From an uncultured Chthonomonadaceae bacterium (GTDB lineage: Bacteria > Armatimonadota > Chthonomonadetes > Chthonomonadales > Chthonomonadaceae), in contig CAWFQB010000001.1 in NCBI GenBank assembly GCA_963817895.1, positions 928,001 through 992,000 of the forward strand: a DNA stretch of 64,000 bases. Reading direction: 5' to 3'. Position numbers and translations under genes: made by a program. The stretch's first letter is position 1; every line of letters begins with the position of its first letter. The notes under the pieces are model-generated. The model was given only the letters and a program-made list of their open reading frames with translations. It was not told the DNA's origin and did not search any database. Below are positions 483 through 61,068 of this stretch, one piece after another.

Positions 483-640
483 TCAGGCGCTCAGTCTCAG
501 CCGCTCTCTTATATACTTCACAAGCCGCAAAAAGAGTTCTGGCCGATGGCTACTGACTCGAAATTTGCCGAATCGCTCTTTAAGTTCATCCAGCGGGCAA
601 TCATGAATCCCCGATGGTAAAAAGCCTTCCCAAAGTTCAT
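483..640 (-). pseudogene. N-terminal fragment of a DUF6932-like (nucleotidyltransferase-fold) protein
   Basis: GFLPSGIHDCPLDELKERFG..SSHRPELF resembles the DUF6932 N-terminus; the SD+ATG at 640-638 is out of frame with it and the ORF stops after ~50 aa. Confidence 0.5.
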
Positions 641-715
641 GCGCCCCTCCCCATCCCCTTGATGCTAAATTTAGAAAAAAGTAGAAAAATATCTGTGTAA
701 ATAGCAGAAACAAAC

Positions 716-742
716 GAACCTCTTCCGAATATATCTCGTCTA
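716..742 (+). promoter_or_regulatory. ECF-sigma-type promoter motif GAAC-N17-CGTCTA (element copy 1)
   Basis: Both boxes and the 17-nt spacing are conserved in all three copies while the spacer sequence varies. Confidence 0.55.
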
Positions 743-899
743 CATACTCATATACGTCTACTATATAGCGTCTATTAACCAGCGTGTACTAACTGGTCAG
801 GCGGCGGGACGTTACAAGCGCGGAGTTTATATCAACGATGAACTCTCCACTGGAGCTACGAACTCACAACAATCTAACCCGGAAGGGAGGTGCAAGAAG

Positions 900-929
900 A
901 TGCCTGTATATACTTCTCGTTCGCCCTGA
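900..929 (+). CDS. Putative 9-aa micro-peptide MPVYTSRSP
   Basis: GGAAGGGAGGT SD ending 8 nt before the ATG; start, length and stop position conserved in the other two copies. Confidence 0.55.
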   Translation: MPVYTSRSP

Positions 930-1232
930 TGCTTACGAGGTCACGACGCCTCCTTAGAAAAAATTTGACACAACGAGACACCGGGCTGGAAGCGCTGCAT
1001 TGCCACTATTTCGACGCTGTCTCTACATATTCCCTTTTTTCTGCCTACGGCCTTCCCGGTATTCACACCTTTATAGAAGCGTCCGCCCCGCATGATAAAC
1101 ACGCGGCATTGCGCTGCCAATATGAACCCGTTTGCAGGTGGCGACGTATGTACAATTGAACGCTTGCAAACGCCGACAACGCCGTCGCAGAGAACGCAAG
1201 CGCATACTACCGATTAAAAAGGATATGCCGCC

Positions 1233-17300: not shown

Positions 17301-17384
17301 GGCTTTTCTCCTCTCCTGTTCAAGCTTATTTTACCACGCGCCTGCCTGTAACACTCCAATTGTAACCAGGCAGTCAGGACTGGC

Positions 17385-17740
17385 GCATCTAAACGGAAAA
17401 AGAAGGAGAATATGTAGAGACAGCGTCGAAATAGTGGCAATGCAGCGCTTCCAGCCCAGTGTCTCGTTGTGTCAAGTTTTTCAGAAGAGGCATCGTGACC
17501 TCGTAAGTGTTAGGGCGAACGAGAAGTATGTACAGGCATCTTCTTGCACCTCCCTTCCAGGTTAGATTGTTGAGAGGAATTTTGAACTTTCAACTTCCCG
17601 CCGCCTGGCTAGTTAGCAGAATCTATAAAGTAGACGTGCGTTGCATATAGAGACGAGGTTAGTTCAGAAAGAGTTCATCCGTTTTGCTATTTAACTAGAT
17701 TTTTTTCTACATTTCTTGTTCATTGGAGGTACATCCTTAT
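17385..17740 (-). repeat. Dispersed non-coding element, copy 2
   Basis: Core at 17411-17475, ORF at 17510-17539, promoter motif at 17650-17676. Confidence 0.9.
17510..17539 (-). CDS. Putative 9-aa micro-peptide MPVHTSRSP
   Basis: Same SD and frame as copy 1; stop is TAA instead of TGA. Confidence 0.55.
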   Translation of the reverse strand: MPVHTSRSP

Positions 17741-17961: not shown

Positions 17962-20900
17962 AAGTGTACAGTTACTATCATTTTGGTTTAAGTGTTTTTA
18001 TGCCCTATCGTTGTAGCTGTCATCAGGATAAGGTACATAGTCGCACCGTTGAGGTGATAGATTAGGTATTATGCGCCAATTTTTTCTTCATAACAGCAAT
18101 CAGGCTAAGGCTGCAATATGGTAGTCTCGGTGTCTTGGATAGTCTTACTCACATTGAGTTTTGAAGTTTAAATCTACATAGATGTAGATTTAAGCCAACT
18201 ATCTAAAACTTCTGCACTAGTGACGGGCGCTGCCGAAAATTCTCGCCACTCAGTTAGCAACTGATCCAAAATATTTCTACTACTATAATTTGACCTGAAA
18301 ATATCCAATATATCATTTGTGATATTTTTAACAACAGTGTCTTTCAACGATGTAACGGCCCGAACTACTAACACATAACATTCTAAAAGCCAAGAGCCTT
18401 CTGACAATCGGCAACCTTCTACTATGACATCTTGCCATGGCCTAAAGTCAGAATTTCCGCTTGGATGCACAATAAACATCAAAGCAGCCGTGGCTCGCAC
18501 ATAAAGTGGCAGAGCAGCATTTTCAGCGATTTCCCTTATAGCATTCGCATTTTCTACATATAAATCGATAATTTTACCTATTTTATGCAATGGCGTATCA
18601 GAAATGATCTGAGAACTTATTGTGGATATACCCTGCTGTATGTCATGTCGTCCTAGTATAGAAACTATGATAGATGGAAGAAGCATTGCTTCTTCGGGCA
18701 AACGTAATCGAAACGTTAGCTCTTGGTCATTCCAAGAAATATAGTATTTTTGCTGAGTAGAAGCCGTCGTTAAAAATGCACAGCGCAATTCTTCTTCTCG
18801 ATGTGGAACTTTGCAGATGAGTGTTATCCAAACTTGTGACTGGGCTTCAAGGATATTAGGACGATCTAATATCGCAGAAGCGACCCTATCAAACATTATC
18901 TGAATATCGCTATCCGAAAGGTGAGAAGTGAATGTATCCAGTATTGTATTAGTACATAATTCAAGAGCAAACGAAGGTAAGAACGAAAAAGTTTTCAGAA
19001 CATCATCTACAGTAAACTTGCTATGAAGAGCGAAGTGTATACATGGTCTAATTTTTGTTGTGCAGCTCTCAGCCAAGAATTCGTGGATACCATTATCATC
19101 TAGGTTTAAACACCGGTTAAATTCACCTTCGACATTGAACTCGCCAGTACCTGAGAAAGGAAAGTAAGCTCGAATATGTATAGGTAAGGCATATAGATAA
19201 TTTATTCCGTTTTCGCGTAGTATTGACATGACATTACGCATATTTTTCGGGGTGGGATCATACGCAAAACGTATAACGTTTAACGCCAGTTGCATTAAGC
19301 CAGTCATAGAATCTGTATCAGCTAACGCCGGAACCCAATTGTCAAATGTACCTGTTGTCCAATCATGCTCAAAGACTTTACCAGTAACCATACCATAATT
19401 TTCATGATTATTAGTTTCAATATCATTTGAACGCAATAAGAAATATTCTAGAAATATTAATTTCTGATCTGTATATCCCTTATGTCTGGCAACATCAATT
19501 GTTTCTTTTATGGACTTTTGTAGCAAACTAGTTACTAATCCGTAGAAGTTGCTATCGAAATTGGAAATAGCTGGTTCAGAGAGAAGATCAAGAAGAACTT
19601 CAACAAGCCATTTTTGTAAAGGTTTAGCCAAGACAGAATATTCACTATCATATCCATCTTCTTGCGATCTTCTATTTATAATAGTAGATAAATAGTGAGG
19701 AGGGGAGGAAAGCAAGTAATCGCGTATTTCTGCGACGCGCTGATGGTTGTCTGGCAAAATATAGGTAAGAACAATAGCCGCGCCTATGTTTTCGCTGTAG
19801 TGCACTTCTTTGAGGGCTTCAGACAGTACATTGCATAGCCAAATCAGGGAATTGGCGTGAGATACATCTATCAAATCAGACAAGGCTGCAATATCCGTAA
19901 AGGAGTATAGAGGCTCTAAACAGGTGCGAAACTGCCCACGTATACGTTTATCCTGCTCAAGCACTCCTTCATTAAGCAGTCGGGCAACCAGTAATGCACC
20001 TCTTCCAAGACGACGATAAAGTAATCTTAAATCCGGTTCGTTCTCGCTTTGATCTAGTTGAAGCAATACTTGAATAGCTACTGATAACTCCGTCCCTCTA
20101 TCATTCTCGATTAGTGCGCTTAATAAAAAGTGCATCACTTCACGCCAATGTGAGTCCCCAGCAATAACTTCCAGTCGCAAGCGCAATCCATCAGCATCTA
20201 CAGATTTATAAAGAAATTCTGCTGCGAAGAACTCCTGAAGTTGTCTTACATCAAATCGCACATGTTCTCCTGTTTCTGGAGTATTGACAAGAACCAAACG
20301 ATCTGTAGCACTACTCATTAAGGCATCAACGTAATCCTCTGGCCCTTCCTCCAGCATTTGCGAAGCGGCTTCTTTAGCTAATTCATAAAACTCACTACGA
20401 GCCAAGTTTGTTTGCGCACCTTTGCTGGTTTCACCACGTGAATGTAAAACAAAGCCCAAGCGATTGTGCAAAGTTTTAAGAAGTGAGTCCTCTCTCAACA
20501 GTTTGGAAATAGCCGGGTCTGGAAGGTTTCGGTTAGCCTCACGCTTTTTGATGACTTGATAAAAATTTTGGAAGAGCTGCCAGCGACGTTCAGGGGGAGG
20601 ACCCCCATCGCGCACAACAACAGCCATAATGTGAGATTGAAGAGGAGTAGTCATGAGTTCGCGTACGGACTCTGATTTAATGGCTGCTGTCAAAGCGGCC
20701 ATATACTGCTGAGATTCGCTGTGAGTTCGATCCTGTTGGAGGACTGGCGCAGCACATAGTAGAGCTTGATCTGGGGTGAGTTCCACTAACTGTATAGTAG
20801 AATTATCTAAAGCGGAAAATTGACCTGAGTAACCTTGAGGCCTGGAAGTACAAATGGTTAATAAATCTGCCTGACACTCTGTTTGTATATTATGAACAAA

Positions 20901-21227
20901 AGCACAGACTTCAGTAGCAACAGCATCCTTAACGTTATGAGGAACCTCATCCAAACCATCGAAGACAACAAGCCAACTTTGACTGGCAAAAGCGCGTTTT
21001 AAGGTGCCTGAGTAGACGGTTTCTTCAACCCCAAACTCAATTTTTCTGGTGAGGTAAGTCAAAATACCACATGGTTCGTCAATACCTCTTTTGCCGAACC
21101 ATTGCGCATAGTCTTTTAACTCAATTTGGATTGGAATGCGTGGCACTTTAGGATAGCGCCCCGTTTTGTTGGCCGATTGAGCAATTTCCTCAGCTAAAGT
21201 TCTCTGCTTCGGCAAAATGTGAGGGGC

Positions 21228-22852
21228 CCTGTGTGCCACAATAGGTTGAGACAAAATCCCGTACACGAAATAGTGTAGATCGCCAGGGCGGAGAATGGAT
21301 TTCTCAGATGAATACGCCGTTGACAGACAGCCCAACCACTCGCCTCACCAACAATGGACACCACAGCGCGCCCTCCCCCGCGCTGCGCCCGGAGGCGCAG
21401 GTGCAAACGCGCCCCACGCGCCGCCGCTTTACCGCTGCGTACAAGCTGCGCATCCTTAAAGAAGCCGACGCCTGCGTCAAGCCGGGAGAGTTGGGGGCGC
21501 TGCTTCGCCGCGAAGGGCTGTACTCCTCCACGCTTGCCAACTTCCGCAAACTGCGCGAGGCGGGTCAGTTGGGCGAGAAGAACTCTGCCCAGGCGCAGAA
21601 GCAGCGCAAAGACAAAGAAGCCGCCCGCCAACGCGATGCCCGCAGGATGGCCGCTCTGGAAACCGAGAACCAGAAACTGCGCGTTCTGCTGGAACTCCAA
21701 AAAAAAGTAGCGGCCTTGCTCGACCTGACACTGGAAGAAACGCCGCCCGAATAAGCCTGGTTGCCGAAGCGGGCGCAACGACCGGGATTGGCCGCGCCTG
21801 TGATGCGGTGCAACTGAGCCGCGCCCGCTTCTACCGGGAGCAACACGCTGGTACGGGCACAATCCAAGAAGGCGTCCTTGTTCCCAAAGCACAACGGGGT
21901 TCTCCTCGCCGCTTGTCGGAAGAGGAACGCGCCCTGTTGCTCAATCTACTCTTGTCGGAACGCTTTGTAGACGCTTCGCCCCGGCAGGTGTATGCGCAAT
22001 TGCTGCAAGAAGGCGTGTATCACGCTTCCTATCGCACGATGTATCGCCTGCTGCACGAACACCAAGCCATCTGTGAGCGTCGGCGGGTTCGCAGGCATCC
22101 GGCGTATAGCAAACCTGAACTTAAGGCAACCGGCCCTAATCAGGTGTGGACATGGGACATCACCTACTTGAAGACGCCCATTCGGGGTCGCTTCTATTAC
22201 TTATATGTGGTTATGGACATCTACAGTCGTTATGTGGTCGGCTGGATGCTCGCAGACCGGGAGTGTCAATACCTGGCGCACAAGCTGCTGCAAGAAACCT
22301 GTCGTAAATACAACATCGCGCCTAACCAACTCACCCTCCATGCGGATCGCGGCGGGCCGATGAAAAGCCAGTCGGTAGCGCAGCTCTTACTTTCGTTGCA
22401 GGTGACCCGTTCGCACAGCCGCCCGCGTGTCAGCAACGACAACCCGTACTCGGAAGCCGGGTTCAAAACGATGAAGTACAGCGCCTACTTCCCGGAGCGC
22501 TTTAGCAGCCAGGAAGACGCGCAGACGTTCTGCCAGGACTACTTTGTCGGGTACAATACGTGCCACCACCATACCGGCTTGGTGTTGCTTACGCCCGAAC
22601 AGGTGCATTTCGGCGAAGCAACGCAGGTATTGGCGCAGCGGCAAGTCACGTTAGATAACGCCTATGCCGCGCATCCGCAACGCTTTCGAGAGCGTCCGCA
22701 GGCGGGGCAGTTACCCGACGTCGTCTGGATCAATGCGCCTGCGTTGCCCGTTGGCGAAGGCACAGCACCGGTTGCCGGTTGAGTGGCGAGGAATGACTGC
22801 TCGCTACATAAAAATACTTTCGCTTTTTGTCTCAAAATCCTTGACACATTCC
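21228..22852 (+). mobile_element. IS3-family insertion sequence
   Basis: Imperfect IRs TGTGCCACAATAGGTTGAGACA (from 21232) and TGTCTCAAAATCCTTGACACA (to 22848); GGGGC repeated at 21223-21227 and 22853-22857; GC-rich within an AT-rich gene. Confidence 0.92.
21308..22782 (+). CDS. IS3 transposase OrfA (21308-21754) / OrfB fused by a -1 frameshift
   Basis: OrfA RRRFTAAYKLRIL HTH; OrfB WTWDIT, HADRG, NDNPYSE DDE motifs; A8G slippery site at 21699-21707 with the -1 frame open into OrfB. Confidence 0.9.
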
Positions 22853-59028: not shown

Positions 59029-59086
59029 GCCACAGCATAGCCCAAAAACCTGACAGTCCGCAAGTTCCGGCGGGCATAAGGCAGGG

Positions 59087-59470
59087 ACGCATCAAATGGG
59101 AAAAGAAAAAGAGTATGTAGAGACAGCGTCGAAATATTGGCAATGCAGCGCTTCCAGCCCGGTGTCTCGTTGTGTCAAGTTTTTATGTAGAGGCGTCGTG
59201 ACCTCAAGCGCGTCAAGGCGAACGGGGAGAGTGACCAGGCATCTTCCAGCACCTCCCTTCCAGGTTAGATTGTCGAGAGTTCATCGTTGCCAGGAACTCC
59301 GAACTTTCAACATCCCGCCGCCTGGCTAGTTAATACACGCCATTAGTAGACGTGAGTATGCGTTTAGACGAGGCGAGCGCAGAAAATGTTCATTGTTTCC
59401 GCTATTTACGCCGAAACTTTTCTACATTTCTGCGCATCTTTTCTGAAATGAGCAACAAGGAGGAGGGCGC
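59087..59470 (-). repeat. Dispersed non-coding element, copy 3
   Basis: Core at 59114-59178, ORF at 59213-59242, promoter motif at 59365-59391. Confidence 0.9.
59213..59242 (-). CDS. Putative 9-aa micro-peptide MPGHSPRSP
   Basis: Same SD, length and RSP-stop ending as copies 1 and 2. Confidence 0.55.
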   Translation of the reverse strand: MPGHSPRSP

Positions 59471-59511
59471 AGGCGCAGCACAGTGACGAATGACCCGCGA
59501 CGGGAGAGAGG

Positions 59512-61068
59512 TTGAGTATTTTGGCGCGCCAGCCCGCTTCCTCCTTGTCTCCCCCTCTCCCCCTCTCCTTGTCTGTTATTGTTCCTTTACATGGCGGGCG
59601 GGCGGACTTGCGGCGGTGTCTGAACAGTTTGGAGGCGTGTCGGGAGTGGGTGTCTGAGGTCGTGATTGTGGACAATGCTTCGCCGGATGATGCGCTGGAA
59701 GAAGCGGCGGGGCGCGCGTGGGTGAAGGTCGTTCGCAATGAGGAGAACCGGGGATTTGCCGCTGCGTGTAATCAGGGCGCGGCGGCGAGTACGGGGGAAA
59801 TCCTCCTGTTCCTCAACAGCGACGTGGCGGTTCCTCCGGCGGGATTGGCGCGGCTGCTCGAAAGCCTGCGGGTTTCCGGTTCCATTGCCGCTGCCGGTCC
59901 GTATACCAACCGGGCGGGGCATGGGCAGCAGATCGCGCCCACTTACACCACGCTGGACACGCTGGATTTGTTCGCGCAGGACTTTGCCGGTCGGCAGGCA
60001 GTGGATGAAGATTGCGACATGCTGGTGGGCCTGTGTCTGGCGGTTCGGCGCAGCGCGTTTGTGGAAGTGGGCGGATGGGACGAGCGGTTCGGGTTGGGGC
60101 TGTTTGAAGACAACGACCTGTGTTACCGATTGCGGCGGGCGGGCTATAGGTTGGCGCGCTCCGGGCGCAGTTTCGTACATCACGGCGGTTCGCAGACTTT
60201 CCAACGCCTGAACCTGGACGTGGCCGCCCTCCTGCGCCACAACGAGCGCCTGTACCGGCAAAAGTGGCAGGAGGATATTGAATGTGGCTATGCTTCCCAC
60301 CTGTCCGGCTTATCCCCGGAACCTGTCCGCTTCGACCCGGCCCACCATCCCGCCATTCGCGCCCGCCGGATACGGGAACTGGCCCGCCGCGCCGACATAT
60401 CGCTGTGCATGATCGTCAAAGATGAGGAGCGCGTGTTGGGCGAGTGTCTGGCAAGCGCCCGCCCCTTCTTCCGCGAGATGATTGTTGTGGACACGGGTTC
60501 CACGGACAGAACGCAGGAGATCGCGCGGGAACACGGCGCAACGGTCTACGAGTTTCCCTGGACGGACAGTTTCAGCGAAGCCCGCAACGAGAGCCTGAAA
60601 TACGCGAAGGGCAAGTGGCTGTTCTGGATGGACGCCGACGACACCCTGCCGCCCGCCTCCGGCGAAGCCCTCCTTCATGCCGCCCTCCACGCCCCTGCCC
60701 ACATTGCCGGGTTCGTCGTGCCGGTGCAGTTCGTGGACGAGGGGCCAAGCAGGGACGGCGGCGCATCGGGAGCGGGCGGAACGCGGGTAGACCACGTCAA
60801 ACTCTTTCGCAATCTGTCCGGCCTGAAGTTCGAGGGGCGCATCCATGAGTAGATACTCGCGTCTTTGCGTCCGCATGGCGACATTGCCCGCTGTGCCGCC
60901 TTCGTGCTGCACTCCGGCTACGACACTTCGCCGGAAGGTCAGGCCAAAAAGCGACTTCGGGACGCCAAACTGCTGCAATTGGACTTGCAGGAACGCCCCG
61001 GCCATCCGTTCGTTTTGTTCAATTTAGGTACAATTTCTGCAAACACCGCATTTATTTCACTTATATAA
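59512..61068 (+). pseudogene. Tandem GT2-GT2(-TPR) glycosyltransferase fragment with an in-frame TAG at 60850-60852
   Basis: NRGFAAACNQG, FLNSD, FEDND, SLCMIVKDEE, MDADD; RIHE-TAG-IL where HEQI is expected; homology ends at FNLG (TPR start). Confidence 0.8.

Follow-up and report, generated by a model that had tools for sequence, protein, structure and literature searches.

The window (the whole 64-kb stretch of DNA analysed here) contains, in three of its intergenic regions, copies of a repeat that a preliminary description could match to no known family, raising the question of what the repeat encodes and what has dispersed it. That description offered an sRNA or micro-peptide module driven by a stress sigma factor, or else the conserved end of an undescribed integrative element. 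All of the blocks that it named were found at all three places in the same order, and the repeat is real rather than a chance resemblance, with 47 copies in the genome that holds the window (G000) against none for a reversed-pattern control. As judged from its sequence, it looks like an uncatalogued small RNA gene family with scattered copies in one genus, referred to below as Pro-stop RNA.

Copies were counted with a 20-nt core pattern allowing at most one mismatch, which has 47 matches in G000 and 161 in G002, a relative of the same genus, and none when reversed. In G001, a second relative of that genus, the pattern finds 7 copies, one of them with a mismatch, and a covariance model finds 13, of which 7 form a divergent subfamily. 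The preliminary description had proposed counting copies by BLASTN, and BLAST with the core against G000 gave 48 loci. Pro-stop RNA was not found in 65 other genomes of the order searched with covariance model R2, nor in 37 other genomes of the family searched with the broader model R3, only the best 53 or 89 candidates being scored in each search, and viral contigs gave no match to the core pattern. Two metagenome matches and at least five foreign-genome matches, among the matches listed, were dismissed for missing flanking blocks, as was a one-mismatch core match in one of 398 other genomes of the phylum; sequencing runs sharing a small fraction of Pro-stop RNA words were dismissed as habitat evidence. 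The window has no match in Rfam 15 at the gathering threshold, and the window copies together with five further copies gave chance-level matches alone at E values up to 10, in agreement with the earlier failure to recognise an RNA family. No description of the family was found in the literature, most subscription journals lying outside the scope of that search. Two partial cores were seen in G000, one a half core forming a hairpin with its own inverted copy (C9:78480-78560) and the other a truncated core behind a REP (C14:637830-637938).

Each copy is a self-contained unit that runs from a promoter through a strong Shine-Dalgarno sequence (SD), an ORF of 8-16 codons and a hairpin to a stem-loop in which AGCGCUGYAUUGCCA does not vary (Table 1). 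This anatomy was tabulated in 134 copies (47 from G000, 74 of the 161 from G002 and 13 from G001), or 133 once a copy without the hairpin was dropped; since the copies are related, the counts below do not represent independent events.

Table 1. Features of the three Pro-stop RNA copies in the window (positions in the window; promoters and 3' end are predicted).
Feature	Position	Strand	Remark
Copy 1, ECF-type promoter GAAC-N17-CGTCT	716..741	+	motif also precedes two ECF sigma genes; putative promoter use
Copy 1, leader block of subfamily A	798..809	+	
Copy 1, strong Shine-Dalgarno	881..892	+	-14.9 kcal/mol duplex with the 16S 3' end of this genome
Copy 1, mini-ORF MPVYTSRSP*	900..929	+	
Copy 1, 5-bp hairpin, 7 nt past stop	937..952	+	
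Copy 1, 3' irregular stem-loop	975..1023	+	invariant 31-nt core 985-1015; family-wide 15-mer 991-1005
Copy 1, conserved CATA and pyrimidine tail	1024..1045	+	possible 3' end
Copy 2, ECF-type promoter	17651..17676	-	
Copy 2, SD and mini-ORF MPVHTSRSP*	17510..17558	-	
Copy 2, post-stop hairpin	17487..17502	-	
Copy 2, invariant core	17425..17455	-	
Copy 2, right ISAs1-type terminal inverted repeat	17375..17393	-	2 mismatches in 19
Copy 3, left ISAs1-type end	59511..59538	-	decayed; edges approximate
Copy 3, ECF-type promoter	59366..59391	-	
Copy 3, SD and mini-ORF MPGHSPRSP*	59213..59261	-	
Copy 3, post-stop hairpin	59190..59205	-	
Copy 3, invariant core	59128..59158	-	
Copy 3, right ISAs1-type end	59082..59096	-	internally deleted

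The mini-ORF is most constrained at its end. The codon before the stop encodes Pro in 131 of the 133 copies (CCC 88, CCT 23, CCG 14, CCA 6), compared to a baseline of 7.6% among 2997 long ORFs of G000, and is preceded by Ser (90/133) or Pro (34/133) at position -2 and by Arg (121/133) at position -3. The stop is TGA in 97 copies, TAA in 35 and TAG in one, and is separated from the hairpin by 7 nt in 130 copies and by 8 nt in the other three. Among the 129 copies in which an SD and a start were recognised, 124 have their first start in frame. The ORFs span 8, 9, 11 or 15 codons, with one more G001 copy at 16, and indels therefore come in threes. In the G000 mini-ORFs, variation is 37-65% at third codon positions but 0-5% at positions one and two of the codons for Arg and Pro. 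This codon-periodic pattern is the signature, as read from the aligned copies, of selection on a translated ORF whose sole fixed feature is its end. The clear coding signature would also fit a very improbable alternative, in which the 8-16-residue peptide is itself the product, serving as a signal or as a ligand of the ribosome tunnel, with RNA structures that merely stabilise the message; against this, the copies encode 67 different peptides that have only their final residues in common, and the strongest constraint in the unit falls on the non-coding loop. By general ribosome geometry, the 7-nt spacer would set the hairpin at the mRNA entrance with the stop codon in the A site. A switch in which the hairpin region sequesters the SD was rejected (median SD/anti-SD pairing probability 0.01).

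The 5' half of Pro-stop RNA is built like the CreT RNA toxins of Pseudomonas aeruginosa (bioRxiv 10.64898/2026.06.02.729485) and haloarchaea (PMC8501985), which in the accessible descriptions also combine an SD, a mini-ORF and a downstream hairpin. In the proline-codon CreT of P. aeruginosa, the SD, the Pro-Pro-stop mini-ORF and the hairpin are each reported in the accessible text to be needed to block translation; this mini-ORF, like that of Pro-stop RNA, ends in Pro before the stop, and the CreT RNA acts through translation. The same partial accounts describe CreT as a single gene within a cas locus, repressed by a CreA guide, whereas Pro-stop RNA occurs in 13-161 dispersed copies. They further describe a need for two prolines or rare codons, whereas Pro-stop RNA mostly ends in R-S-P-stop, has Pro-Pro in the 34 copies mentioned above and uses all of the synonymous codons, and a tolerance for a 15-nt spacer insertion that leaves the hairpin spacing free, whereas the spacing in Pro-stop RNA is fixed at 7 nt. 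Unlike CreT as described there, Pro-stop RNA also has an invariant 3' domain and ECF-type promoters. A cas1 search of G000 (assembly 81% complete) found none, and none of the 26 spacers of one G002 CRISPR array matches Pro-stop RNA. As a separate observation, an RT gene and a Cas1-like ORF lie beside a 27-repeat CRISPR array in G002 (L219:3430-8030, contig C49), with a Pro-stop RNA copy about 1.5 kb beyond.

The 3' domain comprises an outer helix, an inner helix and an apical region, and its core is the most conserved part of the unit: over 29 defined positions the G000 copies show one mismatch in 1363, against 30-60% variation in the spacers. A profile search with the SD, ORF and hairpin gave 46 matches, every one of which adjoins a core, so decayed copies are not hiding. 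Among 39 close copies, changes in three helices are wobble-compatible only, and covariation falls short of significance, with 79 of 500 shuffles scoring as high. When the divergent G001 copies are added, two-sided changes appear at 5 pairs (25 cells; none of 500 shuffles, relatedness being ignored), and these compensatory changes fall mostly in one lineage. In that subfamily the helices are 91% paired, versus 39-58% when slid, and with its inclusion the 15-mer given above is the sole invariant stretch. In the G000 copies, base pairs of the outer helix have a median probability of 0.73; RNAalifold picks a different fold for the 3' domain, and the folding energy of the sense strand is no better than that of shuffles (z -0.59 to 0.67). 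A search for complementarity between the 15-mer and rRNA or tmRNA gave nothing better than shuffles and yielded no partner or target for the loop. Visual inspection led to the rejection of protein coding across the core, in both strands, with four-fold sites invariant and a 1-nt indel in the G001 subfamily, and an IS605-like right end was rejected for lack of conserved TCAA-like bases. Selection on the SD, the Pro-stop end, the spacer, the helices and the loop is apparent from these alignments.

Upstream of the unit, 97 of the 134 copies have a motif of the GAAC/GAAAC-N16-17-GTCT type, 17 have another of the CTTCTAAA..TTAATA type, and 20 were left unassigned. When the first motif is defined more strictly, 15 matches in G000 lie away from the copies. 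Two of these precede ECF sigma genes (C1, about 1.5715 Mb; C7, about 0.1609 Mb), and ECF sigmas commonly drive their own genes; the second motif also precedes 4 other loci. The ECF-type motif is accordingly read as the putative promoter of Pro-stop RNA, in line with the stress-sigma promoter proposed earlier. It can be argued that interchangeable promoters on a single downstream unit mean that the transcript matters. As weak evidence of expression, each of three metatranscriptomes contains a single contig, at low depth, from a copy in a relative, and these contigs may be DNA. The earlier reading as an sRNA/micro-ORF module is supported.

The genes downstream of the copies bear on whether the RNA is a leader. 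At the three window copies the downstream gene is co-oriented, as described previously, and Pfam confirmed pgm, a PIN-domain gene and two GT2 genes among the flanking genes; the NACHT label given to the 1053-aa ORF at 18174-21335 (AT-rich stretch) is unconfirmed, since that ORF has no Pfam match. Genome-wide the co-orientation does not hold: tabulated over all 47 G000 copies by mechanical ORF calls, the downstream genes are co-oriented in 26 cases and convergent in 21, and are mutually unrelated, which removes the proposed general link to the downstream gene. Because this orientation is unbiased, Pro-stop RNA is not a leader. Short Pro-stop ORFs followed by RNA structure are also found in the PheL and TnaC leaders (PMC3082878), which in the accessible part of that source control a downstream operon in cis, whereas Pro-stop RNA has no orientation or functional link to its neighbours. 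The leader-like anatomy, with two alternative folds, a pyrimidine tail and an ORF ending, like pheL and tnaC as described there, in Pro, would suit a cis attenuator or terminator in which a Pro-rich leader peptide toggles the 3' folds and controls read-through into the neighbour, but the 21 convergent genes, the unrelatedness of the neighbours and the absence of any copy upstream of the orthologous pgm and hpnB-like genes of G002 make this improbable. Pro-stop RNA is independent of its neighbour genes.

What disperses the copies is partly a transposon of a known kind. The extent of about 350-400 bp given previously captures the repeat but falls short of the full unit, which is about 460 bp long and bounded by ISAs1-type inverted repeats that had been missed. 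These ends of subfamily A, CAGGGCCGGCGCATCT, recur without change at full-length ISAs1-family elements in G000, and the shared 16-19-bp end bounds PF13808/PF01609 elements at C4:225500-226770 and C9:136907-138149; copy 1 of the window has lost both ends. In G002 the left ISAs1 end is present in 17 of 88 distinct copies, in units of 419-539 bp. Eight of these 17 are flanked by a 10-bp target duplication with no more than one mismatch, whereas 272 crossed pairs gave none, and a G000 copy on C4 has an exact 11-bp duplication, the usual ISAs1 target duplication being about 8-10 bp; none was seen at the full-length ISAs1 copies themselves. Two G002 copies (L131 and L098) have clean empty orthologous sites in G000 with a single target. 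Subfamily A is a non-autonomous ISAs1-family element, transposed with target duplication, and this mobile form replaces the integrative-element end proposed earlier. As far as was checked, no recombinase, RT or Y1 gene shared between copies adjoined any of the 47, and no Y1 transposase gene adjoins a G000 copy.

The ISAs1 ends do not bound the whole family, being found in only those 17 of 88 G002 copies and with no PF13808 match in G001. An ISAzo13-type right end lies downstream of 20 of 73 G002 copies (a count with no null distribution), and both ISAzo13-type ends enclose one G000 copy (C7:84750-85256), whose flanks differ at one of three bases; the ISAzo13 target duplication is 3 bp, and a full ISAzo13 element is present at G000 C5:258774-260136. 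ISAzo13 ends are a probable second vehicle of Pro-stop RNA. The junctions of the remaining copies are crowded with palindromic and heptamer repeats. Since G001 has few copies and no match to either ISAs1 or ISAzo13, the Pro-stop RNA gene is probably older than its IS vehicles.

The ends and the cargo have fared differently. In the 17 ISAs1-ended G002 copies, 91 of 646 end positions depart from consensus, compared with 0 of 493 core positions. An exact core pattern had served to choose most G002 loci, but the 18 chosen by BLAST also show no core change (0/522). The codon-periodic ORF, the invariant core and the persistence of that core while the IS ends decay bear out the earlier suggestion of selection on separate blocks. 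The terminal inverted repeats, target duplications and empty sites could have been explained by a neutral MITE family conserved merely through recent copying and conversion, a scarcely credible reading that is already largely refuted by the codon-periodic and pairing-preserving variation, by the decay of ends around intact cores and by core conservation in G001, where neither IS family is matched. Mobile insertion cassettes (MIC231) and MITEs, in the accessible account (PMC6199540), similarly use transposase-less IS inverted repeats, are moved in trans and duplicate their targets; unlike those described there, Pro-stop RNA elements have as passenger a strongly selected small RNA gene, ISAs1 ends bound just a minority of them, and the end of a second IS family also flanks them. 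The Bacillus cereus bcr1-18 repeats (PMC6542083) likewise are, by the available description, lineage-restricted dispersed repeats of 100-400 bp with up to 130 copies and mobile features; that description ties their mobility to a TTTAT motif, and a promoter-SD-mini-ORF unit goes unmentioned in the part available. The Pro-stop RNA family is real, selected and genus-restricted, and part of its copies are MIC-like passengers: the vehicle is of a known kind, and the cargo belongs to no catalogued family.

The copies turn over quickly. Flanks of 105 G002 and G001 loci gave 121 matches, of which 8 lie near a G000 copy and 4 are same-position pairs. The four G002 copies in these pairs have a similarity of 0.71-0.78 to their partners, against medians of 0.79-0.83 to their own paralogs (partner ranks 58-90 of 132), and this closeness to own paralogs points to homogenisation by gene conversion. 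The selection 'rather than' recent copying of the preliminary description is thus a false alternative, because both occur: selection stands, and copying is recent as well.

The near-zero decay despite redundancy is directly explained by a selfish element, in which transcription, translation and the loop are needed in cis for copying or overwriting (for example by a host reverse transcriptase) and the host gains nothing, and this makes it a serious rival, although we consider it unlikely. Its case is strengthened by the fast turnover, by the resemblance of same-position copies to their own-genome paralogs, by the 71 of 88 distinct G002 copies without ISAs1 ends and by a type XIII-like retron RT in all three genomes. 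However, the copies retain the promoter, which lies ahead of the putative start and would be lost in RNA-mediated copying. IS-end transposition with duplication of the target accounts for some of the spread, inspection by eye revealed no a1/a2 repeats, and the RT is also present in 4 genomes of two genera where the covariance models found no Pro-stop RNA. A role as msr-msd of the retron, which would place the ncRNA directly beside the RT gene, failed on comparison with the type XIII description in the accessible text of PMC7736814, the nearest Pro-stop RNA copy lying about 8 kb from the G000 RT.

The reading that we prefer, at a little short of an even chance, is a stand-alone RNA gene that is stress-induced, translated and ribosome-pausing, and works in trans, either on the ribosome or through it. 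As the motifs suggest, transcription of each copy would depend on an ECF stress sigma or on the second host promoter. A ribosome would load at the strong SD and may pause where the P site holds Pro and the A site the stop codon, a geometry that the sequence shows. Pro before the stop slows termination, and tagging and frameshifting occur there, according to the accessible portions of PMC3082878 and PMC13410324. The paused ribosome, with the hairpin lying 7 nt downstream at its mRNA entrance, would protect the RNA and expose the 3' stem-loop, whose invariant loop may bind a protein or RNA partner. With 13-161 copies, such RNAs could throttle translation under stress, like CreT RNAs. The copies spread as passengers between IS ends, those of ISAs1 and probably those of ISAzo13, and would be homogenised by gene conversion. 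A more far-reaching version, which we regard as doubtful, would make Pro-stop RNA a new mobile stress-inducible 'ribosome-parking' class, with dozens to hundreds of short Pro-stop messages that each have a docking loop for a protein or the ribosome, amplified via the ends of several IS families and serving as a dosage-tuned translation brake (dormancy) or as a CRISPR-independent family of addictive RNA toxins. A structured RNA family with a translated mini-ORF has stayed intact in up to 161 copies while transposon ends rot. If ribosomes do pause on it, CreT-type RNA action would extend beyond CRISPR loci, and small-RNA gene dosage would be seen to build up by hitch-hiking on IS ends. A functional test would be cheap, because 130 natural variants already mark which bases matter.

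Several further features of these genomes were recorded. The type XIII-like retron RT of G000 lies behind a SWIM/BRCT protein and a long helical-repeat-like protein (L216:3236-6758, G000 C6:132735-136257); only 113 bp lie upstream of the RT, and the arrangement is conserved in 7 of 42 family genomes. Miniature elements with ISAzo13- or ISAs1-type ends but no RNA core occur in G000 at C1:1229952-1230031, C1:60017-60120, C9:64631-64764 and C8:16906-17508. Intergenic tandem heptamers of the TATCAAC and TCATCCT types (e.g. C1:1448112-1448148, C6:73023-73078) and several REP-like palindrome families are abundant in G000, and invade the leader and tail of Pro-stop RNA. At G000 C4:223181-230044, ARAGORN finds 17 same-strand tRNA genes, with the ISAs1 element at 225500-226770 between the first and the other 16.
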